Below are positions 3,804-33,529 of a stretch of DNA of 64,000 nt, in pieces. The notes under the pieces are model-generated. The model saw nothing but the letters and a program-made list of their open reading frames with translations. It did no database searches and was not told the DNA's origin. Numbering within the stretch: position 1 is the stretch's first letter; every line of letters starts with the position of its first letter. This stretch comes from a bacterium (lineage in GTDB: Bacteria; Patescibacteriota; Minisyncoccia; UBA6257; GWB1-50-10), in contig JAKAIX010000001.1 of the NCBI GenBank assembly GCA_021814165.1, positions 77,623 to 141,622 on the forward strand. The letters are read 5' to 3'. The position numbers were made by a program, and so were the translations under genes.

Positions 3804-5075
3804 ATGAACAAATTCCTCCAAATTTTCAAAATACCGGACTTGAGAAAGAAGGTCCTTATGGTGCTCTTTCTTCTTTTCGTATTTCGTCTTCTTGCCGCGA
3901 TTCCGATCCCGGGCATCGACGCCGTTCGTCTCCAGCAATTTCTCTCCTCGAACGAATTATTCGGATTTCTAAACATTTTTTCGGGTGGAGGCCTTTCAAA
4001 CCTCTCGATTATGATGCTTGGCGTAGGTCCTTATATCACGGCAACCATCATTATGCAGCTTCTCACAATCGTATTTCCGAAATTAAAAAAGGCGTACTAC
4101 GAAGAAGGAGCCGCGGGACAAGCAAAATTCAACCGCATCTCGCGATATCTCACCGTTCCGCTCGCGATGTTTTCGGGGTACGGTTTTCTGAATCTTCTCG
4201 CATCCCAGCGGGTATTGCCGCATCTCTCATTTCTCGAGCTCGTGAATAACGTCATTATCATCACGGCGGGCAGCATTCTTATCATGTGGATAGGAGAACT
4301 CATTTCCGAGTACAAGATAGGAAACGGCATCTCCCTTATTATCTTTGCGGGTATTGTGAGCCGCCTTCCGCAGGAAGCCGCGGCAGCGTTTTTTAACTAC
4401 AATCCGGATATGCTGCCAACCTACATTGCTTTCATATTGTTGAGTATTATCGTGATCGCGGGAGTCGTGTTCGTGAATGAAGGGGAGCGTAAAATTCCCG
4501 TGTCATACGCAAAACAAGTCCGCGGTATGAAGATGTACGGCGGAGTATCGACGTATTTGCCGCTTCGGGTGAATCAGGCGGGCGTGATTCCAATCATCTT
4601 CGCAATTTCTCTCCTCCTTTTTCCTCAATTCTTCGCACAGATGATTTCGATTGCCTCTCCGTCTCTTTCGCTCAAATTGAATGCATGGGTGACCGGTTTT
4701 TTCAACAACGTCCCGCTTTACAGTTTGATCTACTTCATTCTCGTCGTGCTTTTTACCTACTTCTACACGGCAATTACATTTGATCCGGGAGAAATCTCGA
4801 AGAACCTTCAGCGAAACGGGGGATTCATTCCCGGAATCAGACCGGGACAGGCAACCACCGACACCATCGCGAAAATTACGCGTCGTATTACGCTCTTCGG
4901 CGCTCTCTTTCTCGGTGCCATTGCCATCCTCCCGAACATCACGCAGATTGTGACCGGTATCCAGGCGCTCACGATTGGCGGCACGGCGCTCCTCATCGTA
5001 GTCGCCGTTGCACTCGAAATCATGAAACAAATAGAATCCCAGCTTACGGTAAGGGAATACGAGGGGATTTTCTAA
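3804..5075 (+). CDS. secY: Preprotein translocase subunit SecY
   Basis: 423-aa multi-TM protein starting [29 protein letters not shown]...; SecY follows L15 in the operon. Confidence 0.93.
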
Positions 5076-5076
5076 T

Positions 5077-5769
5077 ATGAAGGGGAGCAAAAAGGCAGTG
5101 ATTCTTTATGGGCCGCCGGGTTCGGGAAAAGGAACTCAGGCGGAGCTTCTCGTGCGACGTTACGGATTTTTCCACTTCGACACCGGTCAATATCTCCGCC
5201 GCCTCCTAAACGACCCGAAGAATAAAAACAACAAAGAGATTCAGAGAGAGAAGAAGTTGAACGAAGAAGGCACACTCAACACCCCTTCGTTCGTCCTCAA
5301 ACGAGTGAGAGAAGAAACGCGCCGGATTTCCCGGATGGGTCTAAGCATCACCTATAGCGGATCGCCGCGGACGCTTTTCGAAGCCTTCGGCGACGTCAAA
5401 CACGAAGGTCTTCTCGCTCTGTTAAAAAAAGAATATGGGACGAAGAACGTGTTTATTATCCAACTTCTCGTGAATTCCGCTTCCGCCGCAAAGCGAAACG
5501 CCGGTCGGCTTATGTGCGCCGTCTGCGGTTTGCCGATCCTTGCCGCCTCGAAAACAACAACATGTTCATTTTGCGGCGCACCGGCAAAACGGAGGGTAGA
5601 CGACGATCCGAAAATTTTTGCACACCGCATCGAAGAATACAAAAAACGTACATTCCCCATTCTTACAAAGGCGATTGCACGAGGCTACGCCATCAAAAAG
5701 ATAAACGGGGAACCGGCACCCTATCGCGTTCATGATGCGATAGCCGCATACCTGGAAAAGGCACACTAA
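5077..5769 (+). CDS. adk: Adenylate kinase (long form with insertion and C4 LID)
   Basis: P-loop [11 protein letters not shown] and zinc LID CAVCG...CSFCG. A ~50-aa Lys/Glu-rich insertion follows the NMP-binding region. Confidence 0.85.
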
Positions 5770-6631: not shown

Positions 6632-8713
6632 TTATTCTTCCTTGTCTCCGCTCTTATCTTCGTCTGCGTCCCCGTCACCATCACCATCCTCGCCGTCCTT
6701 ATTCTCCGGTTTCGTCCAGCTTGCAAAATCACACTCCGGATAACGGTTGCATCCGTAAAAAAACCTTCCCCGCTTTGTCCTCCTCCGAATTACCCTTCCC
6801 GTCCCGCACTTGGGACATGGCCCCAGATCGTTCGATCCCGTGGGAGCAAGTGATTTGGTGCTCTTGCACTCCGGAAAGCCCGTACAGGCCAAAAATCGCC
6901 CAAAACGGCCCGTTTTTATGGCCATCGGCTTGCCACATCTTTCGCAAACCTCGTCTGTGGACTCTTGGGGCGCCAAGGCCTCTTTTTGGACACTCTCGTA
7001 TTTCTTCTCAAGATGTTTCTTAAAAGGTTCATAGAATTCGCGTATGGTATCCCGCCATCTTCTTTTTCCCTCGGCGACTTCGTCAAGCTCCTCTTCCATG
7101 TGCGCAGTAAACCCGAGATCGACGATCTCGGGAAAGTGTTCCGTAAGCACCTTGTTCACCAGAAGTCCTATTTCCGTCGGTTCGAAACGGCGCTCCGGGT
7201 TCTTTTGGACATAATTTCTGCTCTGAATAACCGAGATGATGGGAGCGTACGTGGAAGGCCGCCCGATCCCGTTCGCTTCGAGTGTTTTAATCAGACTTGC
7301 TTCGTTATAACGCGCAGGGGGTTCGGTAAAATGCTGCTCGGGTTTTACCTCCGAAAATCGCAGCGCTTCTCCTTTTTTGAGTGCGGGAAGAAGCCTTTCT
7401 TCGAACGTTTGATTCCACACTCTCAAAAATCCGTCGAAGCGCATTGTCGCCCCGTTTGCCTTGAGTGTAAACGTGTCATCTCCATTCCTCGCTTCGACGA
7501 GAACGCTTGTAAGCGCGAAAATTGCCGGGGGGAGTTGAGAAGCCATGAATCTGCGCCAGATCAGGTCATATAGTTTCTTTTCCTTTGCGTCCTCGAGCGT
7601 AATGGAAACGGGATCGAGGAGGGGATTCGTCGGACGTATTGCTTCGTGCGCTTCTTGTGCAAGACGCGATTTTGTTTTGAACACCCGGGGAGCTTCCAAA
7701 AGATAATTCTTGCCGAACTTCTCGCCGATGTATTTCTGCGCGATATGAAGCGATTCCGTCGAGAGATTCACCGAATCGGTGCGCATATAGGTGATGAAGC
7801 CGTTCTCATAAAGTCTCTGTGCAAGCATCATCGTCTGTTTTGCACTCATGTGAAGGCGACGGTTCGCCTCTTGTTGAAGCGTACTTGTAATAAACGGCGG
7901 GAGGGGATTGCGTTTCATTTCTTTCTCCTCGATCGCAATCACGGAGTATGTCGCGTTTTTCAGCTTCTCCGCGATCGCCGTCGCATCGGCCTTGTTCCGA
8001 ATCGTGAATTTCTCGAACGGTTCTCCCCCGATTTTAAAAAGTGAGGCTTCAAATACGTTCTCTTTCGTATTCTCGGGAGAGAGTATTACGCGGATCGTCC
8101 AATATTCTTCCGGTTTGAAGCGCTTAATCTCTTCTTCCCGTTCCACAATAAGCCGCAGAGCGACCGATTGCACCCGGCCGGCGGAAAGTCCCCGCACGAT
8201 CTTCTTCCAAAGAAAAGGGGAAAGTTCGTATCCCACAAGGCGGTCCAAGACGCGCCTTGCTTGCTGGGCGTCCACGAGATGCAGGTTGAGCGCTCTCGGA
8301 TGTTTCAACGCGTCCTGAATCGCGGACTCCGTAATTTCATGAAATACGATACGCTCGACCGGAATATCTTTCTTGACTTGGGATTTGGAACTTTTGATTT
8401 GAAAACCCCCAAGCTCAAGAGCTTGGGTAAGATGCCACGCGATGGCTTCTCCCTCCCGGTCTTCGTCGGTTGCGAGAATAACTTCATCCGCTTTCACCGC
8501 AAGTTTTTTTAAAGCGGTGACGTTCTTCTTCGCCTTCATCGGAATGATATAATGCGGTTCGAAGTCGTGCTCGATATCGATGCCGATCTTGCTCTTCGGC
8601 AGGTCCCTGATATGCCCGTAGGAAGATTCTACATGAAACCCCTCTCCCAGGAATTTGCCTATCGTTTTGGCTTTGGTGGGGCTTTCAACGATGACTAATT
8701 TCGTCTGTTTCAT
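6632..8713 (-). CDS. topA: DNA topoisomerase I
   Basis: Toprim N-terminus MKQTKLVIVESPTKAKTIGKFLG, C-terminal CxxC zinc ribbons and an acidic DGEDGDGDGDADEDK tail. Confidence 0.93.
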   Translation of the reverse strand: MKQTKLVIVESPTKAKTIGKFLGEGFHVESSYGHIRDLPKSKIGIDIEHDFEPHYIIPMKAKKNVTALKKLAVKADEVILATDEDREGEAIAWHLTQALELGGFQIKSSKSQVKKDIPVERIVFHEITESAIQDALKHPRALNLHLVDAQQARRVLDRLVGYELSPFLWKKIVRGLSAGRVQSVALRLIVEREEEIKRFKPEEYWTIRVILSPENTKENVFEASLFKIGGEPFEKFTIRNKADATAIAEKLKNATYSVIAIEEKEMKRNPLPPFITSTLQQEANRRLHMSAKQTMMLAQRLYENGFITYMRTDSVNLSTESLHIAQKYIGEKFGKNYLLEAPRVFKTKSRLAQEAHEAIRPTNPLLDPVSITLEDAKEKKLYDLIWRRFMASQLPPAIFALTSVLVEARNGDDTFTLKANGATMRFDGFLRVWNQTFEERLLPALKKGEALRFSEVKPEQHFTEPPARYNEASLIKTLEANGIGRPSTYAPIISVIQSRNYVQKNPERRFEPTEIGLLVNKVLTEHFPEIVDLGFTAHMEEELDEVAEGKRRWRDTIREFYEPFKKHLEKKYESVQKEALAPQESTDEVCERCGKPMAIKTGRFGRFLACTGFPECKSTKSLAPTGSNDLGPCPKCGTGRVIRRRTKRGRFFYGCNRYPECDFASWTKPENKDGEDGDGDGDADEDKSGDKEE

Positions 8714-9606
8714 GATTTCGCTATGGAAAACGTCCCGTGTAATTCCTCAATCTTTCCCTCCAATATAAGAAGAGAAAGCTCCTGATTCACTCGTTGTGTC
8801 TCAAGATGGGTCATTTCCGAGATGTTGTCAACCGTAAGAGGCGAAGAGGCCTCTTTGATGGCCCGGAAAACCGGAGATGTTTCTTTTTCCTCATGGCCCC
8901 TCTCCCGTTCTTTTTCCGGAACGGCAAGCACGCCTTCGTATGCCTTCAAGGCTTCTTCAAGATCGTGCGCGATGTCCTTTGCGCTTGTCACAAGTCGTGC
9001 TCCCTCCCGTATGAGCATGTGCGATCCCTGATAATTCCTGTGACGGACCGGTCCGGGCACCACGAAGACTTCGCGCCCTTGCTCGAGCGCGAAACGCGCC
9101 GTCGCAAGCGATCCCGATCTCATGGGCGCTTCGACGACGATTGTCGCGATGCTCATTCCGCTTATGATCCTGTTTCGTTCGAGGAATTGATGCCGTAGGG
9201 GAGCGATACCTTCCGGGTATTCCGAGCAGATAGCGCCGCTTTGCGCAACAATCGACTCCGCAAGATGTTCATGGAGCAGGGGATACACGGTATCGAGGCC
9301 GTTCGCAAGAACCGCAATCGTATTTCCTCCTCCCTGAAGCGCGCCTTCGTGCGCCGCGCCATCGATGCCGATTGCAAGTCCGCTCACGATGGTAATGCCT
9401 GCTTTCGCGAGATCATAGGCAATCTGTTTTGCGATAAGTTTCCCGTCTTGTGTCGCTTTCCTCGTACCGACGATTGCAACGCATATGCACGGGGAAGGAA
9501 ACGAGCCTTTTACGAAAAGCGTCGCGGGAGGGCTCGGTATTTCACGAAGCAGTTTCGGATACTCCTCCTCCGAATATGAGATGTGATGAATAGGAGAAAT
9601 CGGCAT
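8710..9606 (-). CDS. dprA: DNA processing protein DprA/Smf
   Basis: YPKLLREIPSPPATLFVKG...GTRKAT...GLAIGIDGAAHEGAL... is the DprA Rossmann domain. Start is set at the internal Met at 9606 because the longer ORF would overlap tRNA-Ile. Confidence 0.85.
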   Translation of the reverse strand: MPISPIHHISYSEEEYPKLLREIPSPPATLFVKGSFPSPCICVAIVGTRKATQDGKLIAKQIAYDLAKAGITIVSGLAIGIDGAAHEGALQGGGNTIAVLANGLDTVYPLLHEHLAESIVAQSGAICSEYPEGIAPLRHQFLERNRIISGMSIATIVVEAPMRSGSLATARFALEQGREVFVVPGPVRHRNYQGSHMLIREGARLVTSAKDIAHDLEEALKAYEGVLAVPEKERERGHEEKETSPVFRAIKEASSPLTVDNISEMTHLETQRVNQELSLLILEGKIEELHGTFSIAKS

Positions 9607-9638
9607 AACAATAACGATATCCAAAAACTGCCTTATTT

Positions 9639-9713
9639 TGGTGGGCATGGAAGGAATCGAACCTTCGACCTCTGTCTTATCAGGACAGCGTTCTACCACT
9701 GAACTACATGCCC
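9639..9713 (-). tRNA. tRNA-Ile (anticodon GAT), CCA encoded
   Basis: Reverse complement is GGGCATGTAGTTCAGTGGTAGAACGCTGTCCTGATAAGACAGAGGTCGAAGGTTCGATTCCTTCCATGCCCACCA. All four arms pair and the anticodon loop is CTGATAA. Confidence 0.9.
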
Positions 9714-9975
9714 GTATTCTTTATAAATCCATCTTTTACTATCTTATCAATATAATCCTTTCGCTTTAGTTTTTTCAACCTCAATTCTATTTTCCTGGCA
9801 ATCTACAAGCTTGGAAATTTTTGAACAAAAACTAATTTTTTTTCGTCCATTCTCCTTGTTGTTTGAGTATGACCGTGCTGGTGTTGATACCATCTTCTAT
9901 AAATATCATTAGTACTTCCAATGTACAATCTATTGTTCGTACCATCTTTAATAATATAAACAAAGCCATCCATAG

Positions 9976-10051
9976 GCGTTCTACCATCCCGACGCGCTTC
10001 GCGGTCGGGACTCCGACCCCCGAAGGGGCGTCGGAGTTGAACTACATGCCC
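9976..10051 (-). pseudogene. Partial tRNA-Ile copy (positions 1-26) with a 50-nt double-hairpin insertion in the D-loop
   Basis: Reverse complement is GGGCATGTAGTTCA + [ACTCCGACGCCCCTTCGGGGGTCGGAGT CCCGACCGCGAAGCGCGTCGGG] + ATGGTAGAACGC. It then diverges with no anticodon or T arm. Confidence 0.7.
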
Positions 10052-10079
10052 AAATTACGATTTTGAGTGTAAGTGAATT

Positions 10080-10298
10080 CTACTTCTGAATCAAGTTTAA
10101 TTTTTCAAACTCCTGGATATTAAATTGAAGATGCGTCGGAGCGACGCTCGGCGCCTCAAGTGCGCCTTCCAAACTCGACCCCAAGAATACGATTCCGTAT
10201 ATCACGAATGCGCCCGTGATGAGCACCATCGCCGAGGCAAGCACGATGAAAAACATATTCTTGGAAGCCAGACGAATTGTTCTTATCTTCTCACGCAT
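10080..10298 (-). CDS. Hypothetical small membrane protein (72 aa, 1 TM)
   Basis: ORF with hydrophobic core FFIVLASAMVLITGAFVIYGIVFLG, immediately downstream of the 10304-10828 gene on the same strand. Confidence 0.35.
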   Translation of the reverse strand: MREKIRTIRLASKNMFFIVLASAMVLITGAFVIYGIVFLGSSLEGALEAPSVAPTHLQFNIQEFEKLNLIQK

Positions 10299-10303
10299 GT
10301 TAC

Positions 10304-10828
10304 TTAGCGATAATACACCCGCCCCTTAAGCGTCATCGTGAACCGTCCCTCGTCGTTTCTTAAAGAGACGTTATCGATTGTATTCAGATATTTGAAGGTT
10401 TCCATCGCTTTGAGGAACGCGAGCGATGTCTTGGTGTCGCTTCCTCCAAGCGCGAGCGAAAATCCGATCGATCCCAATCTATCCTTCGTCGGTTGCGTTT
10501 CGCTGGTAAAGGAAAACCCGTAGGTTAACTGATACTGGTTCGCGAGCGTCTGAAGCGACTGATTAAGATCGATAAGATTGTCATACGAAGGAATAATCGC
10601 CTGAAGCACGCTTAAATAGTTCTTTGCCCTTGAGTTATATTGGGCCTCGAGAAGCGCCTTGTCGTACACTTTTGAGGTCTGACTCGCGAGCAATTGTCTC
10701 GCCTGGGTAATTTTCAGAAGGTACTCACTGATGTTGCTTTTAAAGAAAAAAATGCCCCATAACAGCGCGACGATGAGTATAAGTGCGACACCGAGGTCGA
10801 TCCAGAGGCGTTTTTTGAAACTGTCCAT
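10304..10828 (-). CDS. Hypothetical membrane-anchored protein (N-terminal TM, possibly PilO-like)
   Basis: Start chosen at MDSFKKRLWIDLGVALILIVALLWGIFFF. One TM followed by a ~150-aa soluble region with no clear catalytic motif. Confidence 0.5.
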   Translation of the reverse strand: MDSFKKRLWIDLGVALILIVALLWGIFFFKSNISEYLLKITQARQLLASQTSKVYDKALLEAQYNSRAKNYLSVLQAIIPSYDNLIDLNQSLQTLANQYQLTYGFSFTSETQPTKDRLGSIGFSLALGGSDTKTSLAFLKAMETFKYLNTIDNVSLRNDEGRFTMTLKGRVYYR

Positions 10829-10895
10829 GGCTCTCTTCCTATTATAGCGTACTCGGCTTGAACCCGCATCCGTCTCATCGTACACTATACGCACT

Positions 10896-10953
10896 GGGCC
10901 GTTAGCTTAGCTTCCGCCAGAGGCGGACCAGCCTTTGGCTGGGGTAAGAGCGC
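10896..10953 (+). pseudogene. Partial tRNA-Ala copy (positions 1-26) with a 32-nt double-hairpin insertion in the D-loop
   Basis: GGGCCGTTAGCTTAG + [cttccgccagaggcgg accagcctttggctgg] + GGTAAGAGCGC. The first 15 nt match the tRNA-Ala at 11196 exactly. Confidence 0.7.
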
Positions 10954-10959
10954 AACCTT

Positions 10960-11205
10960 ATGTTCTCTGTCTATGTCTTAAAAAGCCTGAAAAACGGGAA
11001 GAGATATATTGGGTATACGAGCAAACCTCCACAAGTAAGGTTAAAAGAACACAATAATGGTTCGAATGCATTCACCAAAAATAACAAACCATTTGTGTTG
11101 ATATATTCCGAACAGTATAGTAATAAAAGAGAAGCCATCCAGAGAGAGCACTTTCTGAAATCAGGGAAGGGGAGAGAATTTCTGGATAACAGTTTGGGCC
11201 GTTAG
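10960..11205 (+). CDS. Small standalone GIY-YIG nuclease-family protein (81 aa)
   Basis: VYVLKSLKNGKRYIGYTSKPPQVRLKEHNNG...NKREAIQREHFLK is a GIY-YIG/URI domain. Its TAG stop codon lies inside the 5' end of tRNA-Ala. Confidence 0.75.
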   Translation: MFSVYVLKSLKNGKRYIGYTSKPPQVRLKEHNNGSNAFTKNNKPFVLIYSEQYSNKREAIQREHFLKSGKGREFLDNSLGR

Positions 11206-11268
11206 CTTAGTTGGTAGAGCGCCTCGTTTGCAACGAGGAGGTCACCGGTTCGAATCCGGTACGGTCCA
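11196..11268 (+). tRNA. tRNA-Ala (anticodon TGC)
   Basis: GGGCCGTTAGCTTAGTTGGTAGAGCGCCTCGTTTGCAACGAGGAGGTCACCGGTTCGAATCCGGTACGGTCCA. G3:U70 pair present, anticodon loop TTTGCAA. Confidence 0.9.
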
Positions 11269-11412
11269 CATACAAAACCCCCGACCCCTGGTCTAGAAAA
11301 CCCTCGGTTTCCCACAGCCTTCCGACACAGGGGTTTTGCTTTTATTTTGCGAGGCAAAAAATGCTGAATCCGAATGGGTTTTTTGAGAGTATTGTAGGTT
11401 GAATCGCAACCA

Positions 11413-17243: not shown

Positions 17244-17684
17244 ATGTCTGACAAAGAACGTTTCAGAATCTATATTGCGTCATTTTTAATTCTTACAAAA
17301 GACAAAAAGATATTACTCCAGAGAAGGACAAATACCGGGTACGAAGACGGAAATTATAGTTTGGTGTCGGGCCACATGGAAGGCGGAGAAACCGCCGTAC
17401 AAAGCATAATCAGGGAGGCAAAAGAAGAAATTGGCATAACACTCAAACCGAATGATTTACAGGTTGTCCATGTCTTGCATCGCTTGAGCTCCGATCGTGA
17501 ATATATAAACGTGTTTTTGAAAACCGACAGGTGGGAAGGGGAAATCATAAATGCGGAGCCGGAAAAATGCGACGACCTACGCTGGTTTTTGCCCGATGAA
17601 CTACCCGAGAATATGATACGAGGAGTCCGATTTGCCCTGGAGAACATAGCAAAGGGAACCTTTTATAGCGAGCTTGGATGGTAA
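17244..17684 (+). CDS. NUDIX hydrolase
   Basis: Nudix box GHMEGGETAVQSIIREAKEEIGI. Confidence 0.8.
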   Translation: MSDKERFRIYIASFLILTKDKKILLQRRTNTGYEDGNYSLVSGHMEGGETAVQSIIREAKEEIGITLKPNDLQVVHVLHRLSSDREYINVFLKTDRWEGEIINAEPEKCDDLRWFLPDELPENMIRGVRFALENIAKGTFYSELGW

Positions 17685-18037: not shown

Positions 18038-19837
18038 ATGAGCGCCCCCTCAAAGAGAACCTGTCAGGCATGCCAAAAGGAGTTTGCTGTCGAATCCGAC
18101 GATATTACGTTCTACGAAAAAATGCGAATTCCCGCGCCTACATGGTGCCCGGAATGCAGAACAGTACGAAGGATGAGCTGGCGTAACGAGCGCTCGTGGT
18201 ATCGGCGCACGTGTGATGCAACCGGAAAGCCGGTCCTGTCCATGTTCCGGCAAGAAAGCGGTTATAAGGTATACGAGCAGAATTATTGGCGATCTGACGC
18301 GTGGGACCCACTCGAATATGGCAAGGATGTCGACGTGACGCGGCCTTTTTTGACGCAGTTTGGAGAGTTATTAAAAGCGGTTCCGGAACCGAATTTAATT
18401 CAGAAAAATCTCGTAAACAGCGAGTATTCGAATATCGCCCTCAACTTGAAAAATTGTTATAACTGCATCGGCATCGACGGAGGAGAAGATTCGGCGTATT
18501 GCTTTAGCGGTATTCTCGACATACAACATAGTTTTGACATCTACCAAGCCACCAGTACCGAATACTCGTACGAACTGATCGATTGCGTAAAATCCAACAG
18601 CGTGCGTTTTGCGCAAAGCTGCGAGGGATGTGTCGACTCGTGGTTCCTTTATGATTGCAGAAATTGCACGAATTGCATCGCATGCGTCGGCCTCCGAAGC
18701 AGGCAGTATTGCATCCTAAACCGCGAGTACCAGAAAGAGGAGTATGAGAAAGAACTCGTAAAACTCGATCTCGGCAGCTATCGAAAGTTGCAGGAACTTA
18801 ATGCAAAATTTGAAGAACTCAAACTCCGCGTGCCGCGCAAATTTGCGACCATTATAAAATCGGAGAATGTTATCGGCGACAATATCCGAAACAGTCGTGA
18901 CGCACGTGGCTTCGATATACGTGATAACGCGGAGCATGTTCGCTATTCTTATCGCGTGCACCATAACTGCTCCGATATCTGGGATGCGATAGTCGCCTGG
19001 AACGGAGCGGAAGAAGAATGCGAAGCGATGAGTTGCTCGGGAAAACGAATCGTATACTCCGCATTGATTTGGGGTGGATTCGATGTCCAATACTCGTATA
19101 ATTGCTTCGACTGCAATAACATATTCGCGTGCGTCGGTCTTCGGAGCAAATCGTATTGCATTCTGAACAGGCAGTACTCGAAAGAAGAATATGAGACGCT
19201 TCTCCCGAAGATTATCGAGCACATGAACATGATGCCTTACGCCGACAAGCAGGGGAGAACATTCGGATACGGTGAATTCTTTCCTCCGGAGCTCTCTCCG
19301 TTTGCTTACAACGAAACGATCGCTCAAGAGTATTTCCCTCTTTCAAAAGAAGAAGTGGAACGCAAAGGATATCAATGGAAAAATCCCGAAATACGAAATT
19401 ATCAAATGCAAATCAAGAATGATCAGTTACCCGATCACATAAGGGATGTTCCGGATGCGATAGCGAGTCAAACCGTCGAATGCGGACATAAAGGGATATG
19501 CATTCACGGATGTACTACCGCTTTCAAAATAATTCCCGAAGAACTCGGGTTCTACAAAAAGACGGGGATTCCCTTACCTCGTCTCTGCCCAAACTGCAGA
19601 CATTGCGAACGCCTCCTAAAAAGCAACCCCTTGAGATTATGGCACAGGAAATGCCAGTGTGGAGGAATGGAATCAGGAATTAGGAATCAGGAATTAGGGA
19701 AAACGCCGAATTATCGGAATACTGCCACCCACTTCCACGGCGATAAACCGTGCCCGAATGAGTTCGAAACAAGCTACGCCCCCGAGCGGGCAGAAATTGT
19801 CTACTGCGAATCATGTTATCAATCGGAAGTGCTATAA
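18038..19837 (+). CDS. Large cysteine-rich multi-zinc-ribbon protein (599 aa), paralog 1
   Basis: Over 40 Cys in many CxxC pairs (CQACQ..CPECR; CRNCTNCIAC; CFDCNNIFAC; CPNCRHC; CESC). No recognised catalytic motif. Paralog at 31120. Confidence 0.7.
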   Translation: MSAPSKRTCQACQKEFAVESDDITFYEKMRIPAPTWCPECRTVRRMSWRNERSWYRRTCDATGKPVLSMFRQESGYKVYEQNYWRSDAWDPLEYGKDVDVTRPFLTQFGELLKAVPEPNLIQKNLVNSEYSNIALNLKNCYNCIGIDGGEDSAYCFSGILDIQHSFDIYQATSTEYSYELIDCVKSNSVRFAQSCEGCVDSWFLYDCRNCTNCIACVGLRSRQYCILNREYQKEEYEKELVKLDLGSYRKLQELNAKFEELKLRVPRKFATIIKSENVIGDNIRNSRDARGFDIRDNAEHVRYSYRVHHNCSDIWDAIVAWNGAEEECEAMSCSGKRIVYSALIWGGFDVQYSYNCFDCNNIFACVGLRSKSYCILNRQYSKEEYETLLPKIIEHMNMMPYADKQGRTFGYGEFFPPELSPFAYNETIAQEYFPLSKEEVERKGYQWKNPEIRNYQMQIKNDQLPDHIRDVPDAIASQTVECGHKGICIHGCTTAFKIIPEELGFYKKTGIPLPRLCPNCRHCERLLKSNPLRLWHRKCQCGGMESGIRNQELGKTPNYRNTATHFHGDKPCPNEFETSYAPERAEIVYCESCYQSEVL

Positions 19838-20143: not shown

Positions 20144-22174
20144 ATGAAACAACGATATGTAATAAGTGCGTGTCTTTTGGGAGTAAGCGTTCTTATCGGA
20201 GCGGTACTCATCGCTCATAATGTCTCGGCGCAGACGACCGCGACTTCACCGGCCGCAAGCATTCAATATCCGGTAGCGGAGCTCGGCAACTGCGCGAATG
20301 AAACCGCATGCCGCGCTTACTGCGACGACGCGGCGCACACGGATGCGTGCCTCGCGTTTGCCGAAAAACATCAACTGATGTCCCAAGACGAACTTCAAAA
20401 AGCGAAGAAATTCACGGATATAAAAAAAGGCCCCGGAGGATGTACCACAAAAGAATCATGCAAGAATTACTGCGACGACATTTCTCACATCAACGAATGC
20501 GTGGCATTTGCCGAACAGAACGGAATGATGTCGGGAAATGAACTTGCGGAAGCGAAAAAAGTACAGGCGGCGATCGCAAAGGGGGTGAAACCGCCCGCAT
20601 GCAGCGGCAAGGACAAATGCGACGCGTATTGCAGTGATCCTTCCCATATGGAAGAGTGCGTTGCATTCGGAAAAGCGGCGGGACTTATGAGCGATCAGGA
20701 AATTCAGGATTCGGAGAAAGTGCTTGCGGCCATCAAACAAGGAGTGAAGCCGCCCGCATGCCGCGGAAAAGAGGAATGCGATAGCTACTGCAGGGATGCG
20801 GCACACATGGAGGAGTGTATGACGTTTGCGAAGGCCGCGGGATTCATGAGCGCGGAAGAAGCCGCGCAATCGGAAAAGATGCTCCAGGCAATAAAAAAAG
20901 GAGTAAAGCCCCCGGCATGTAACGGCAAGGAAGAGTGCGATAAATACTGCAGCGAGGAGAGTCATATTGAGGAGTGTATTGCATTCTCGGAGGCTGCCGG
21001 CTTTATGACCCCCGAAGAGGCGACTATGGCGCGGAAAACGGGCGGAAAAGGCCCCGGAGGATGTACGAGTAAAGAAGAGTGCGAGGCGTTTTGCAATAAT
21101 CCGGCAAATCAGGAAACGTGCTTCAATTTCGGAAAAGAACACGGGATGATTCCCGCGGAGGATCTTCGGAGAATGGAAGAGGGAAAACAACAGCTTACTC
21201 AGACATTAAACCAAGCGCCTCCCGAAGTGATAACCTGCATCTCAAACGCGGTGGGAAACGATACTCTTGAAAAAATCAAAAGTGGCGCCGTGATGCCGTC
21301 CCAAGATCTGGGAGACAAGATGGGTAAATGCTTTCAACAAATAATGAGTAAGGGCACCGGCGGTCCGGGAGAGGGCGGTTTTGTTCCTCCTCAAGGACAA
21401 GCAGGCCCCGGAGGATGCAAATCCGAGGAAGAATGCAAATCCTACTGTACTTCGCATCCCGATGAGTGTAAAAACTTCGGACCGGCGCGAGAGCGCCAGG
21501 ATCAGGGAGCTCCCGGAAATTCAGAGGGCGTGCCGGGAGGAATGATGATACCGCCGGGCCAAAGCGGTCCCGGAGGTTGTAAGAATGCCGAGGAGTGCCG
21601 ATCATTCTGCGAATCGAATCCGGATGCATGCGCGAACTTTAAACCGGGAAACGGACCGCAAATCAGAACGGAGCAAAGACAGGAGATGATGACGCGAGAC
21701 GGATCCGAAGAAGGTAAAAGCGGACAAAAAGAGGTGAGGAATCGGATTGAGATGATGCCGGGAGTACCGCAAGGCATGATTCCAGGCGACGGAAAGACGA
21801 TACAAGAATTTTTTGGAAACATGCCGATCAACACCTTGAATCCCGTGTGTCCGCCCGGAGCGCCGTGCGGTCCGCAAAACGCACCGGGAGGAAATCTTCA
21901 ACCGGGAACGGAGGTTCAACAAAATAACATGATGCCTCCGGGGGGACAAGGGATGCAACAACCCCTTCAGCAGTTTCAACCGCCGACAGCCCCTCCGTCT
22001 CCGGGAGGCCAAATAATGGGACCTCCTCCGGGCGGCGAAATGATGAATCAACAACCGCCAGGCAGCGGCGGACAAATGGCGCCTCCTCCTACTTCCGGAA
22101 CCCAACCGCCTGCCGGAGGAACGCTTTATCAAGCATTTCAATTTCTTCTGAACGGAATTACAGGAACGAGATAG
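20144..22174 (+). CDS. Secreted tandem-repeat cysteine-rich protein with P/G/Q/M-rich tail (676 aa)
   Basis: Signal peptide MKQRYVISACLLGVSVLIGAVLIAHNVSAQ. Seven or more ~45-aa repeats of the form C..C..YCxD..H..EC.AF...G.MS..E......LAAIK.GVKPPAC. Low-complexity C-terminus. Confidence 0.75.
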   Translation: MKQRYVISACLLGVSVLIGAVLIAHNVSAQTTATSPAASIQYPVAELGNCANETACRAYCDDAAHTDACLAFAEKHQLMSQDELQKAKKFTDIKKGPGGCTTKESCKNYCDDISHINECVAFAEQNGMMSGNELAEAKKVQAAIAKGVKPPACSGKDKCDAYCSDPSHMEECVAFGKAAGLMSDQEIQDSEKVLAAIKQGVKPPACRGKEECDSYCRDAAHMEECMTFAKAAGFMSAEEAAQSEKMLQAIKKGVKPPACNGKEECDKYCSEESHIEECIAFSEAAGFMTPEEATMARKTGGKGPGGCTSKEECEAFCNNPANQETCFNFGKEHGMIPAEDLRRMEEGKQQLTQTLNQAPPEVITCISNAVGNDTLEKIKSGAVMPSQDLGDKMGKCFQQIMSKGTGGPGEGGFVPPQGQAGPGGCKSEEECKSYCTSHPDECKNFGPARERQDQGAPGNSEGVPGGMMIPPGQSGPGGCKNAEECRSFCESNPDACANFKPGNGPQIRTEQRQEMMTRDGSEEGKSGQKEVRNRIEMMPGVPQGMIPGDGKTIQEFFGNMPINTLNPVCPPGAPCGPQNAPGGNLQPGTEVQQNNMMPPGGQGMQQPLQQFQPPTAPPSPGGQIMGPPPGGEMMNQQPPGSGGQMAPPPTSGTQPPAGGTLYQAFQFLLNGITGTR

Positions 22175-27458: not shown

Positions 27459-28277
27459 ATGAAACATGAATATATTATCAAGAAAGCATCCGGTGAAGAA
27501 GAGCCGTTTTCAAAAGAAAAACTAAGATATTCCCTTGAAAAGGCGGGAGTCGTTGGTTCCGTTGCCGATCGCATCGTCGCGCACGTAAGCCAGGAGGCAA
27601 AAAGAGGAATGCGCTCTTCGGATATCCACCGGCACGTCATGAATCTCTTAAAGCGTGAGACAAAAGGGCTTGCCGCCCGTTACAACCTGAAGCGGGCAAT
27701 CATGGATTTGGGACCTACCGGGCACCCGTTTGAAAAATTTATCGGAGAAATTCTTGAACTGCAGGGGTACGTCACAAAAACAAACGTTATCGTCCAGGGA
27801 AAATGCGTCACTCACGAAATCGATGTGGCCGCCTCGAAGGAGGAGCGGCGGATTATGGTAGAGTGCAAGTTTCACAACCAGCAGGGAACCAAGTCGGATG
27901 TAAAGATTGCGCTTTACGTCTACGCGCGATTTAAAGACGTCGCCTCCCGGTTCAATGAGGCGTGGCTCGTCACCAACACCAAACTCACTTCGGACGCGAT
28001 ACGTTTCTCAAACTGCAGCGGCATGAAAGCGATCGGATGGAGTTATCCGAGAGACGGGAGTCTGCAACATCTCGTCGAAACGCTCGGTCTTCATCCCATT
28101 ACGTGCCTTACCACTCCCACGAGAGAGGAGTTGCGCGCGCTCGTCGAACACGGCATCGTACTCGCGAGGCAACTTGATCGGACCGAAACAATACGAACCG
28201 CGATCGGAATCTCTGAATCCCGTGCGGCACGAATACGCGATGAAGCGCTTGGGTTGATCGGTTCTCCGAAAAACTAA
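27459..28277 (+). CDS. ATP-cone domain fused to Mrr-cat/restriction-endonuclease-like PD-(D/E)xK domain
   Basis: N-terminal IIKKASGEEEPFSKEKLRYSLEKAG (ATP-cone). Mid-region HEIDVAASKEERRIMVECKF (D...E.K nuclease core). Confidence 0.6.
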   Translation: MKHEYIIKKASGEEEPFSKEKLRYSLEKAGVVGSVADRIVAHVSQEAKRGMRSSDIHRHVMNLLKRETKGLAARYNLKRAIMDLGPTGHPFEKFIGEILELQGYVTKTNVIVQGKCVTHEIDVAASKEERRIMVECKFHNQQGTKSDVKIALYVYARFKDVASRFNEAWLVTNTKLTSDAIRFSNCSGMKAIGWSYPRDGSLQHLVETLGLHPITCLTTPTREELRALVEHGIVLARQLDRTETIRTAIGISESRAARIRDEALGLIGSPKN

Positions 28278-30362: not shown

Positions 30363-30443
30363 GCGCGGGTGGTGAAATGGCATACACGCAGCCTTGAGGT
30401 GGCTGTGCCGAAAGGCGTGGAGGTTCGAGTCCTCTCCCGCGCA
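30363..30443 (+). tRNA. tRNA-Leu (anticodon GAG), type II with long variable arm
   Basis: GCGCGGGTGGTGAAATGGCATACACGCAGCCTTGAGGTGGCTGTGCCGAAAGGCGTGGAGGTTCGAGTCCTCTCCCGCGCA. Confidence 0.85.
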
Positions 30444-30516: not shown

Positions 30517-30606
30517 AGGAGAGGGGTAGGGAGAACACGCTGGTCTCCCTTGGCGGAAATATTAAAACCGAGGGGTTTTAAAACAGCATCTTACAGAGAT
30601 GCTGTT

Positions 30607-30627
30607 GTTCGATTCCTCTCCCGCGCA
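30607..30627. repeat. Direct copy of tRNA-Leu 3' end (T-loop 3' half + acceptor)
   Basis: gttcgattcctctcccgcgca versus the tRNA's gttcgagtcctctcccgcgca. Confidence 0.7.
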
Positions 30628-30673
30628 CAATCCTTCGCTAAAGCTACGGAATTGCATGCATTATAATAAGAGT

Positions 30674-30991
30674 ATGTATTATGCATACATCTTGTTAAGT
30701 TCAAAATCTCATATCTTTTATTACGGATCCACAAGGAATCTCAAGACGCGATTTCAGCTTCATAACTCTGGGAAGGTTCCTTCCACAAAACCACATCTAC
30801 CATGGAAACTGGTTTGGTATGGCGGATTTGAGACAGAAAAAGAAGCTAGAGATTTCGAACTTTACCTAAAGACGGGGTCTGGAAAATCATTCGCATACAA
30901 ACATCTTGTCTCCGTAGCTTTGGCGGAGGATTTTACAAAAGGAAGAATGGGTAGTCTGAAGTCATCCGCAGTCCGAAGGACGAAGGACTGA
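30674..30991 (+). CDS. Small standalone GIY-YIG nuclease-family protein (~105 aa)
   Basis: MYYAYILLSSKSHIFYYGSTRNLKTRFQLHNSG...ETEKEARDFELYLKTGSG is a GIY-YIG/URI domain. Flanked by tRNA-Leu 3'-end copies. Confidence 0.75.
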   Translation: MYYAYILLSSKSHIFYYGSTRNLKTRFQLHNSGKVPSTKPHLPWKLVWYGGFETEKEARDFELYLKTGSGKSFAYKHLVSVALAEDFTKGRMGSLKSSAVRRTKD

Positions 30992-31119: not shown

Positions 31120-32907
31120 ATGAAGAGCGAAGAGAAACAATGCCAGAATTGTAAGCAAAAATTTGCTATCGAACCCGAGGACTTCGATTTCTATGAAAAA
31201 ATAAATGTTCCTCCGCCTACGTTTTGCCCGGACTGTCGGCTCCAGCGACGCTTGGTTTTTAGAAATGAACTCTCGCTTTATAAGCGAAAATGCGATCTTT
31301 GTCAGAAAGAAATTATCTCTATGTTCCGTCCCGATGCACCGTTTACGGTGTATTGTCCTCCATGTTGGTATTCGGATAAATGGGATCCTTTGAGCTATGG
31401 AGTAGATTACGACCCTTCAAGGCCTTTTCTACAACAATTTTATGAACTCATGGGCCGCGTGCCATTGAACGCGCTCAACAATTTCTATGACACGCTCGTG
31501 AACAGCGACTATACGAATTTCGTCTCATATCTCAAGAACTGTTATCTGCTTTTCAACTCTGACTATAACGAAAACTGTTTCTACGGCGTAGAAATAGAAA
31601 GCAGCAAGGATTGCTATAACAATCTCGCGATCAACAGTTGCGAACTTTCGGCTAATGACGTTAATTGTCAAAAATGTCAGAGGACCTTTTACTCCATCGA
31701 TTGCGAGGCGAGTCATAATGTCTGGTTTTCCAAAAACCTCTCCGGTTGTTCAAACTGCTTCGGGTGCGTGAACTTACGCAACAAGCAATACTGCATGTTT
31801 AACGAACAACTTACGAAAGAAGAGTATGAACAGAGATTAAGCGAGTTTAAAACCAGTTCTCATGCTGAAGTGGAAAAACTTATCCAACAGGCACGAAAAC
31901 TATGGTCTCAAAACCCGGTTAAATTTATACATGGTCGTTTTAATACTAACGTGAGCGGCGATTACATCTACCATTCGAAAGACGTCCGTGATACTTATAT
32001 CGCTACCGAGGCACAAAACTGCCGTTATTGTTTATGGCTCCTCGTTAAACCCATGAAGGACTGCTGGGATACGACGGAATACGGAGATGGCATGGAACGT
32101 GTTTATGATTCAGTCACTATCGGCAACGGCGCAACCGATGTCCGCTTTTCTTTTCTCTGCGCTCGAAATGTTTTGGATGTAGACTACAGTTTTCTTTGTT
32201 ACGGAGGAAGTCATATGTTCGGAAGCGTAAGCCTTCGAAAGAAAGAATATTGCATACTTAACAAGGAATACTCTCCCGAGGACTATGCTAAATTAAAAGC
32301 ACAAATCATAAATGACACGAAAGAACGACCTTATACGGACAAGAAGGGGAGACAATATACTTACGGCGAGATGTTTCCGATAGAACTTTCTCCTTTCGCA
32401 TACAACGAAACATCTGCGCAACAGTTCTTTCCGTTAAACGAACAAGAAACTAAGGAGCAAGGTTATATATGGCTCGCGCCGTCGACAAAGGACTATAAAA
32501 TCGACATCAAGGCCCCAGAATTGCCCGGCACCACAGAAGAAACACCGGACGACATCACCCAAAAAACTATCGGCTGTCTGCATGAAGGAAAGTGCCAAGA
32601 ACAATGTACGACTGCCTTTAGGATCCTTCCTCAAGAATTGAGGTTCTATAAGCAGTTTAAGTTACCTATGCCGAGACTTTGCCCGAACTGCCGCCATTAT
32701 GAACGACTTGCACAAAGAAACTCTCTCAAACTCCAGCATCGCGTTTGTCAGTGTTCAGGAAAGACATCAGAAAATGGAACCTACAACAACACCGCCACTC
32801 ATTTTCACGGGTCCGAAAAGTGTCCTAACGAATTCGAGACAACATACAGCCTTAATTCTCCCGAGATTGTATACTGCGAGGAATGTTACCAACAAGAGGT
32901 TGTCTAA
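31120..32907 (+). CDS. Large cysteine-rich multi-zinc-ribbon protein (595 aa), paralog 2
   Basis: Collinear with 18038-19837: N-terminal CQNCKQKF..FYEKINVPPPTFCPDCR, C-terminal RLCPNCRHYERL...ATHFHG..CPNEFETTYS..IVYCEECYQQEV. Confidence 0.7.
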   Translation: MKSEEKQCQNCKQKFAIEPEDFDFYEKINVPPPTFCPDCRLQRRLVFRNELSLYKRKCDLCQKEIISMFRPDAPFTVYCPPCWYSDKWDPLSYGVDYDPSRPFLQQFYELMGRVPLNALNNFYDTLVNSDYTNFVSYLKNCYLLFNSDYNENCFYGVEIESSKDCYNNLAINSCELSANDVNCQKCQRTFYSIDCEASHNVWFSKNLSGCSNCFGCVNLRNKQYCMFNEQLTKEEYEQRLSEFKTSSHAEVEKLIQQARKLWSQNPVKFIHGRFNTNVSGDYIYHSKDVRDTYIATEAQNCRYCLWLLVKPMKDCWDTTEYGDGMERVYDSVTIGNGATDVRFSFLCARNVLDVDYSFLCYGGSHMFGSVSLRKKEYCILNKEYSPEDYAKLKAQIINDTKERPYTDKKGRQYTYGEMFPIELSPFAYNETSAQQFFPLNEQETKEQGYIWLAPSTKDYKIDIKAPELPGTTEETPDDITQKTIGCLHEGKCQEQCTTAFRILPQELRFYKQFKLPMPRLCPNCRHYERLAQRNSLKLQHRVCQCSGKTSENGTYNNTATHFHGSEKCPNEFETTYSLNSPEIVYCEECYQQEVV

Positions 32908-33034: not shown

Positions 33035-33529
33035 ATGCAGTTACTAAAAACGATAGGAGAAAAAGATAATTCAAGAACGTATCAGACAAGAAAAGCCGCG
33101 AGAGCGATTGTCTCGGATAATGAGGGAAAAATAGCGCTGCTTCATGTTTCAAAACATCATTACTACAAACTCCCCGGCGGGGGGATTGAGGACGGAGAGA
33201 ACAAAGAAGATGGCCTCCGAAGAGAATGTCTCGAAGAAATCGGATGTGAGATTGAGATAACAGGAGAAGTAGGAATCATCCAGGAGTATCGCCATTTTCC
33301 CGATGGTTTTAACGAAGATCAGGAATCGTTTTGTTACACCGCAAACGTGAGAGGGGAAAAAGGATCTTCTCACCTCGAACAAGGAGAGATTGACGATGGA
33401 TTCAAATCCTTGTGGGTGACAAAAGAGAAAGCGGTGGAATTATTCAAGGAAAGTAATCCCGATACTTATGACGGAAAGTTCATTGTTGCAAGAGATCTCA
33501 GATTCGTAGAAGAGGACTTAAGGAACTAA
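33035..33529 (+). CDS. NUDIX hydrolase
   Basis: Nudix box GGGIEDGENKEDGLRRECLEEIGC. Confidence 0.8.
   Translation: MQLLKTIGEKDNSRTYQTRKAARAIVSDNEGKIALLHVSKHHYYKLPGGGIEDGENKEDGLRRECLEEIGCEIEITGEVGIIQEYRHFPDGFNEDQESFCYTANVRGEKGSSHLEQGEIDDGFKSLWVTKEKAVELFKESNPDTYDGKFIVARDLRFVEEDLRN

Follow-up and report, generated by a model that had tools for sequence, protein, structure and literature searches.

Cysteine-rich paralogues of Parcubacteria with zinc-finger-like ends and gene linkage to a VirD4-like ATPase

What does a bacterium with a small genome do with two large, cysteine-rich proteins, and which of their cysteines could bind metal? The question is raised by a 64,000-nucleotide stretch of contig JAKAIX010000001.1 from a patescibacterium of the class Minisyncoccia (the whole stretch is termed the window here), which encodes two paralogous proteins on its + strand: copy A (18038–19837; 599 residues, 34 cysteines) and copy B (31120–32907; 595 residues, 35 cysteines), both with ATG starts. 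We consider it possible, with a probability of roughly 40%, that A and B are Parcubacteria-specific, zinc-stabilised adaptor or nucleic-acid-handling subunits of a machine built on a VirD4-like ATPase, a reading suggested by their architecture and by the genes that recur beside their relatives.

The two copies align over their full length (43% identity, 60% positives, BLAST E = 4e-169) and start 13.1 kb apart, bearing out the original prediction, made from the letters of the window alone, of two collinear paralogous open reading frames (ORFs) of about 600 residues separated by 13 kb. The three motifs that it quoted are present in both copies: CQxCxxxF..FYEK..P.PTxCPxCR at the N terminus, NCxxCxxCxxLRxxxYCxxN in the middle and LCPNCRH...ATHFHG..CPNEFET.Y...IVYCExCYQxEV at the C terminus. 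Its figure of over 40 cysteines each was too high, the actual counts being 34 and 35, and whether these residues are mostly in CxxC pairs, as it stated, is a close call (such a motif includes 19 of 34 in A and 19 of 35 in B). At 5.7% and 5.9% cysteine, A and B are the two most cysteine-rich proteins of the window, about five times its background (pooled 1.09% in 54 other ORFs).

No match to the whole of A or B was found in Pfam, NCBIfam, PADLOC or PHROGs, or in the PDB by sequence or by profile. AlphaFold2 (AF2) models, which the original prediction had proposed to obtain, have a pTM of 0.85 for each copy (pLDDT 83.8 for A and 83.7 for B), and neither has a significant whole-protein Foldseek match in the PDB; a structure search of BFVD matched only a finger of about 40 residues. 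The earlier statement that no enzyme motif is recognisable holds, and none of these searches assigns the proteins to a well-characterised family. No transmembrane segment was found in either copy, which suggests that the proteins are cytoplasmic.

Sequence comparison indicates an internally duplicated architecture, in which a finger pair, two solenoid-like modules and an acidic linker are followed by a second finger pair (all features lie on the + strand). Finger 1 is homologous to finger 3 (BLAST E = 2e-9; hhalign probability 99.1, E = 6.5e-19) and finger 2 to finger 4 (hhalign probability 95.4, E = 1.7e-8), with cross-type finger controls at 20% or less. In copy A, finger 1 (residues 1–52; 18038–18193) is a zf_Tbcl-like treble clef with C9, C12, C37 and C40, and the zf_Tbcl-like finger 3 (residues 479–534; 19472–19639) contains C482, H484, C488, C492, C517 and C520. 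Each has an invariant Arg-rich helix, which in finger 1 is the basic helix RxxRRxxxRNE after the cysteines; the net charge of finger 1 is +2.3, and finger 3 is strongly basic at +5.5. In the AF2 model, DSSP places strands at residues 5–8 and 15–18 and helices at residues 20–29 and 38–46 around C9/C12 and C37/C40 of finger 1, giving a treble-clef-like topology of CxxC knuckle, hairpin and second CxxC at a helix start, and the finger superposes on BFVD models of a ‘putative zinc-ribbon domain’ with a root-mean-square deviation of 0.4–0.6 Å over 37–42 residues.

The fingers belong to catalogued, functionally uncharacterised domain families. With zf_Tbcl (PF13451, a ‘probable treble clef domain’ of bacteria and phages), fingers 1 and 3 share a CxxC-x~24-CxxC layout, the hairpin and helix, and an F..FY..K..P motif; PF13451 proteins are typically small or consist of tandem fingers of unknown function, whereas here the finger is one module in 600 residues. 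Finger 1 of A scores 15.5 bits against PF13451 (E = 0.017, residues 7–45; gathering threshold, 24 bits), and copy B gave no PF13451 match in the Pfam search. Sub-threshold matches to zf_Tbcl were obtained for 25 of 53 family members, and precomputed annotation assigns PF13451 to a few relatives of the B type. Finger 2 of copy B (residues 52–89; 31273–31386) has the spacing of the CxxC-x17-CxxC domain (TIGR04272/PF23477, zf_Tbcl_2), intact at C58, C61, C79 and C82; in copy A, finger 2 (residues 53–92; 18194–18313) is a degenerate remnant that retains only C59. Finger 4 of A (residues 535–599; 19640–19834) is a variant of the same domain with a split first knuckle (C539, C541 ... C572-x17-C590-x2-C593), and fingers 3 and 4 of B occupy residues 483–595 (32566–32904). 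The exact CxxC-x17-CxxC pattern is found at the N-terminal position in 61 of 144 members, including B and not A, and C-x17-CxxC is kept at the C terminus in 136 of 144. Neither A nor B matched TIGR04272 in NCBIfam at E ≤ 1, or PF23477; 12 of 53 members match the domain below threshold, and some relatives are annotated with PF23477. Small CxxC-x17-CxxC proteins of Methanosarcina mazei bind zinc, as determined by inductively coupled plasma mass spectrometry; CxxC-x17-CxxC fingers have been compared with TFIIB-type ribbons, and the annotation of one M. mazei member is that of an RNA polymerase subunit (PMC12704099). Those proteins are small and stand alone, whereas in the A/B family the finger is facultative at the N-terminal position and has a split knuckle at the C terminus.

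The original prediction took the cysteines to be spaced like serial zinc ribbons or treble clefs, a description that suits the terminal pairs, which form fingers of these types, and fails for the centre: only 12–16 of about 35 cysteines lie in fingers, and about 20 central ones are periodic and exchangeable. Conservation classes were judged over 144–216 full-length members. The cysteines of fingers 1, 3 and 4 (in A numbering 9/12/37/40, 482/492/517/520 and 539/572/590/593) are 92–100% conserved; those of finger 1 are kept in 96–97%, the remainder being gaps, and those of finger 4 in 99%. Finger 2 behaves differently: all four of its cysteines (59/62/80/83 in A numbering) are present in 63 of 144 members, B among them and A not, and they are gained or lost as a unit (phi 0.96–0.99), which looks like the signature of a genuine, dispensable metal site. 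This all-or-none loss indirectly supports zinc binding by the B-type finger 2, and the fingers would hold structural zinc at three sites in A and four in B. The roughly 30 variable cysteine columns between positions 128 and 374 (A numbering) reach a maximum phi of 0.47, and the possibility that they form facultative metal sites was rejected by this co-variation test. Across the family, the central cysteines are replaced by Ser or by Val, Leu, Ile or Ala.

Within repeat module 1 of copy A (residues 121–232; 18398–18733), cysteines and serines form a ladder with periods of 3 and 12 that ends in CxxCxxCxxCVGLRxxxYCILN. The autocorrelation of cysteine frequency in module 1 is 0.60, 0.35, 0.45 and 0.42 at lags of 3, 6, 9 and 12 and negative at other lags; the period-3 signal has a permutation P ≤ 0.0005, and control regions show no such pattern. 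Since they recur with a period of three, are exchangeable and do not co-vary, the central cysteines are best explained as packing or ladder positions and not as ligands. Module 1 is homologous to module 2 (residues 269–381; 18842–19180) at a fixed offset of 149 residues (BLAST E = 5e-15); in module 2, DSSP assigns short strands at regular intervals to the AF2 models. The two modules of copy B span residues ~122–385 (31483–32274), and in its model the strands of module 1 start at intervals of exactly 12 residues, at 187, 199, 211 and 223. Of 14 Foldseek matches below threshold, at least 8 are left-handed β-helix proteins, although neither a profile match nor a significant fold match to the left-handed β-helix (hexapeptide repeat) was obtained. 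We interpret the centre as a pair of narrow modules resembling a solenoid, in which Cys and Ser form a ladder along the core, a geometry suggested by the models and the periodicity, and it appears to be a fold without a solved relative. The antifreeze protein of Tenebrio molitor is a narrow β-helix with a Cys/Ser/Ala core and 12-residue coils of the repeat TCTxSxxCxxAx. The A/B centre, with its small Cys/Ser residues at every third position and its predicted 12-residue strand spacing, may recall this protein and the hexapeptide-repeat proteins; neither class gave a significant match by sequence or by fold, and the likeness is architectural only. The A/B family has neither the TxT ice-binding face nor acyltransferase or carbonic-anhydrase residues, and disulfides are not expected in A and B because these proteins are predicted to be cytoplasmic, in a likely anaerobe. 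The central module also illustrates that a cysteine-rich sequence can mimic serial zinc fingers without being such. Module 2 is joined to finger 3 by an acidic linker (A residues 401–478; 19238–19471; net charge −5.5), which has a column conservation of 0.61, a pLDDT of about 90 and the near-invariant motif YGEFFPxExSPFAYNETxAQEYFPL.

The family ranks among the larger entirely uncharacterised protein families of Parcubacteria, with at least 5,045 clusters at 50% identity retrieved at E ≤ 1e-3 in an exhaustive hidden Markov model (HMM) search of 1.84 billion representatives; 2,224 clusters were found at E ≤ 1e-30, and the top 150 are all full length. In a word-indexed search, at least 6,883 clusters at 90% identity were obtained with copy A as the query and at least 6,540 with copy B, all labelled ‘hypothetical’, and species-representative genomes contain at least 575 family loci. 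Named hosts are Lipton-, Giovannoni-, Nomura-, Staskawicz-, Sungii-, Jorgensen-, Niyogi- and Portnoybacteria, Paceibacterota and Minisyncoccia, which together correspond to the Parcubacteria group. The family thus appears, by all named hits, to be restricted to Parcubacteria-type bacteria of the Candidate Phyla Radiation (CPR), which answers the phyletic question posed by the original prediction and, all named relatives being Patescibacteria, is consistent with its assumption of a reduced genome. A protein identical to copy A is encoded on a contig of 775 kb, which also agrees with that assumption. Many family-bearing metagenome-assembled genomes of the binchicken set carry the unverified title ‘uncultured Candidatus Saccharibacteria’, and one 2-kb family contig labelled Gammaproteobacteria is suspected to be mis-binned. 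No family relative was found in IMG/VR viral contigs.

Paralogy is real, and the two copies that had seemed striking in a reduced genome understate it: such genomes, of about 1 Mb, usually hold several ancient paralogues of about 1.8 kb each, often in tandem arrays of two to five. In a survey of 81 family-anchored loci of about 14 kb each, containing 156 family ORFs, one copy was present in 39 loci, two in 20, three in 12, four in 9 and five in 1, mostly as head-to-tail arrays where there were several. For 101 of 103 proteins with a paralogue in the same locus, the nearest relative lies in another genome (median identity 57% to relatives in other genomes versus 45% within a locus); the copies are therefore ancient retained lineages and not recent expansions. 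Copies A and B belong to different lineages, with B having its own orthologue series. Such ancient paralogy argues for a housekeeping role or for distinct subunits, and since these genomes shed most biosynthesis, the retention of several copies points to an important lineage-specific function. Long tblastn matches that resembled domain fusions of the ‘Rosetta stone’ kind were merely adjacent tandem copies.

Which genes recur beside the family was also asked by the original prediction, and the only strongly recurrent neighbour across genomes is a soluble P-loop ATPase of about 485–520 residues. It matches TrwB_AAD_bind, TraG-D_C, T4SS-DNA_transf and DUF87, the first three with scores above cutoffs, is annotated as VirD4 at source and has its Walker A motif (GxxGxGKS/T) near the N terminus. 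Hydrophobic segments were not detected in 27 of the 32 cluster members, and the typical form of 480–520 residues has none at the N terminus that could serve as a membrane anchor. The ATPase gene is present in 25 of the 81 family-anchored loci, and no other cluster directly adjoins family genes as often: it occupies 22 of 191 flanking positions and the runner-up 4. It can lie on either side of the family gene and is always on its strand. Chance would give roughly 3%, assuming about two such ATPases per genome (PMC12102498). The reciprocal survey drew on 80 ATPase-anchored metagenome loci, 66 of them with at least 2 kb of flank: a family gene is present in 64 of the 66, within 900 nucleotides in 62, and where each flank extends for at least 6 kb, 16 of 17 loci have one; all 31 directly adjacent family genes share the strand of the ATPase. 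Labelled genomes of Giovannonibacteria and Niyogibacteria show the same adjacency and block arrangement. ATPase-adjacent paralogues are only about 42% identical and gene order varies, and a comparison of copies rejected the idea that they form a dedicated subclade.

These genes are part of a conserved block, typically ordered as a sigma70_r4/HARE-HTH protein, DUF8128, a small membrane protein (m3), the ATPase and one to four family genes. Across the 80 ATPase-anchored loci, the helix-turn-helix (HTH) protein was counted 32 times, a ~447-residue membrane protein 43 times, a ~178-residue membrane protein 42 times and CutA1 23 times; a long ATPase paralogue and CutA1 often lie within the block. 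Two conserved single-pass membrane proteins are encoded directly upstream of the ATPase (loci L082–L164), for example at 4332–5678 (+) and 7416–7982 (+) of L087. The ~447-residue protein (m2) corresponds to PF26449, DUF8128, in a newer Pfam release, and neither m2 nor m3 has relatives in the PDB, Pfam or NCBIfam in the local libraries. CutA1, a divalent-ion tolerance protein of about 101 residues (for example 9270–9575 (+) of L012), is often encoded between the ATPase and the family gene and may have a bearing on how metal is handled for these putatively zinc-rich proteins. The Giovannonibacteria-type contig L162 has two LAGLIDADG homing-endonuclease ORFs upstream of the block (583–1056 and 1919–2329, +), and its ATPase-adjacent family gene (9476–11288, +) is split into ORFs of 473 and 142 residues that overlap at profile positions 466–471; a frameshift, decay into a pseudogene or an error of assembly may be the cause.

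A finger is also shared between the two partners. Longer ATPase paralogues (560–730 residues) carry one that passes the TIGR04272 and PF23477 cutoffs, and an HMM of this finger matches family finger 2 or 4 and none of 649 other ORFs; in hhalign it scores a probability of 97.1 (E = 7e-11) against the intact finger 2 and 73 (E = 3e-5) against the degenerate class. The ATPase family comprises at least 7,554 clusters, is highly conserved and occurs in the same lineages as the zinc-finger family. In Patescibacteria, 5,713 VirD4-like homologues have been reported in 2,918 genomes, only 148 of them near virB4, relaxases are rare and exaptation has been suggested (PMC12102498). We presume the block ATPase, a member of a known superfamily, to be among these homologues. 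Linkage to the A/B family would then offer a testable handle on a published puzzle, that of thousands of coupling-protein homologues free of a type IV secretion system (T4SS) and suggested to be ‘exapted for other functions’ (PMC12102498). Like the type IV coupling proteins VirD4, TraG and TraD, the ATPase is encoded beside candidate partner or substrate proteins; it differs from them in having no N-terminal transmembrane domain, and none of the T4SS accessory proteins described so far resembles the proteins encoded around it (DUF8128, m3, the HTH protein and the A/B family). Literature searches on the family, on PF13451/PF23477 and on DUF8128 returned no description, and the central module, the overall architecture, the multi-paralogue organisation and the gene block are undescribed in the libraries and literature searched.

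Under the adaptor reading, the finger pairs at both ends would bind structural zinc, the central cysteines would serve as packing residues, and the protein would partner the soluble VirD4/TraG-like P-loop ATPase of the FtsK–HerA superfamily. The finger pairs could contact nucleic acid or the ATPase, the basic zf_Tbcl-like fingers (+2.3 and +5.5) being the candidate nucleic-acid contacts, with the solenoid as a rigid platform between them. The ATPase machine might be a translocase that is tethered to the membrane and descends from type IV coupling proteins, and the family proteins its adaptors or substrate-handling subunits. A wider proposal, which we hold to be doubtful, is that the family, the short and the finger-bearing long ATPases, DUF8128, m3 and the HTH protein make up an undescribed, Parcubacteria-wide, membrane-associated translocation machine with a new fold; the zinc-finger/solenoid paralogues would then be substrate-recognition or DNA-handling subunits, and import, export or segregation of DNA or nucleoprotein might be served in these host-dependent bacteria.

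Several observations weigh against a partnership with the ATPase or against the assignment of the modules. No VirD4-like ATPase is encoded within the window, so neither A nor B adjoins one, and about two-thirds of family loci have none within 6 kb. In the Wolfebacteria ATPase locus L163 (GCA_016214005.1), the small membrane protein upstream is kept, and DUF8128, HTH and family genes are all missing within 8 kb. Some of the linkage reflects synteny that related genomes have inherited, and the block is surrounded by housekeeping genes, among them those for SecDF, FtsW and RecA. The whole protein is acidic (net charge −4.6), A and B each fall below the Pfam and NCBIfam thresholds for both finger families, and the pLDDT of the central region is only 60–75 in the AF2 models.

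One alternative is a multi-zinc-finger protein that binds nucleic acid or acts in transcription on its own, its proximity to the ATPase reflecting conserved synteny and not joint function. The basic fingers 1 and 3 with their invariant Arg-rich helices would suit such a role, as would the likeness of CxxC-x17-CxxC fingers to TFIIB-type ribbons together with the RNA polymerase subunit annotation in M. mazei (PMC12704099), the sigma70_r4/HARE-HTH gene of the block and the position of A and B, which stand alone among housekeeping genes. We consider it unlikely, given that the 97% adjacency from ATPase to family persists despite the divergence of the adjacent paralogues (~42% identity) and varying gene order, that the finger type is common to the long ATPase paralogues, and that a simple DNA binder would not usually be acidic overall or carry about 300 residues of solenoid outside its fingers. 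The family proteins could instead be translocated substrates or effectors that the VirD4-like ATPase recognises, and the tandem arrays of two to five diverged copies beside coupling-protein homologues an effector repertoire in which the conserved terminal modules serve as recognition domains. This is improbable: the paralogues are ancient and well conserved (median 57% between genomes), unlike fast-evolving effectors, no toxin or enzyme domain was found in Pfam, NCBIfam or PADLOC, a protein with several structural zinc sites would be costly to unfold for export, the ATPases are soluble, and few Patescibacteria homologues lie near virB4 (148 of 5,713; PMC12102498).

The 12-residue periodicity of two solenoid-like modules suggests another use, as a rigid β-solenoid scaffold, structural or cytoskeletal and bactofilin-like in spirit, that would polymerise or organise the envelope and oligomerise through its fingers; several conserved paralogues could co-assemble, and FtsW, SecDF and membrane proteins are encoded nearby. 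No similarity to bactofilin or to a known polymer was found in Pfam or by Foldseek, and we regard such a scaffold as slightly more improbable still than an effector. A redox, iron–sulfur (Fe–S) or metal-storage protein, with the cysteines as ligands (for example CxxCxxCxxC at 207–216), would draw on the 83–96% conservation of C207, C210, C213 and C216, on CutA1 as a recurrent neighbour (23 of 80 ATPase-anchored loci) and on the anaerobic life of many CPR bacteria. Against it, the central cysteines swap with Ser or aliphatic residues without co-variation, module 2 of copy B is nearly devoid of cysteine, and neither a conserved cluster-binding motif (CxxCxxCxxxCP or CxxxCxxC) nor a ferredoxin, radical-SAM or other Fe–S profile was matched in Pfam or NCBIfam, which makes this explanation very unlikely. 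Part of a mobile element or of an anti-phage defence system, pairing a HerA-like ATPase with a variable sensor, is suggested by weak matches of the ATPases to the PADLOC mad8 and HerA models and to phrog_5156 and by the multi-copy arrays; this is largely refuted, as the family itself has no PADLOC or PHROG match and no relative found in IMG/VR viral contigs, the flanking genes are housekeeping and the paralogues are ancient and vertically conserved.

In the window, copy A lies downstream of MazG, inositol monophosphatase and NUDIX genes, and copy B is flanked by a GIY-YIG gene on one side and by NUDIX and PfkB genes on the other. The NUDIX hydrolase genes (17244–17684 (+), upstream of A, and 33035–33529 (+), downstream of B) raised the possibility that a segment containing a NUDIX and a family gene had been duplicated. 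This was rejected: the two NUDIX proteins are 28% identical over 72 residues only, and given this distant relationship and their placement on different sides of the family genes, A and B do not stem from a recent segmental duplication. Elsewhere a NUDIX cluster is an immediate neighbour of family genes at 3 of 191 flanking positions, and the presence of a NUDIX gene beside both A and B is probably coincidental.

Directly downstream of A, an ORF of 676 residues (20144–22174, +) encodes a protein with a signal peptide, 5.5% cysteine and no Pfam match. It contains about nine tandem repeats of about 45 residues (GGC..KEEC..YC....H..EC..FA...G.MS..E), each with four cysteines and one histidine, followed by a long tail rich in Pro, Gly, Gln and Met, and is unrelated to the A/B family; considered as a divergent ATPase, it was rejected in favour of an unrelated secreted Cys-repeat protein. 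Small ORFs flanking A were likewise rejected as CutA1 homologues after comparison. Two GIY-YIG ORFs (10960–11205 and 30599–30991, both +) form one similarity cluster, the second immediately upstream of B, and each lies beside a tRNA gene (11196–11268 and 30363–30443). Between the two copies, an ORF of 272 residues (27459–28277, +) combines an ATP-cone with an Mrr-type restriction-endonuclease catalytic domain, an unusual fusion.

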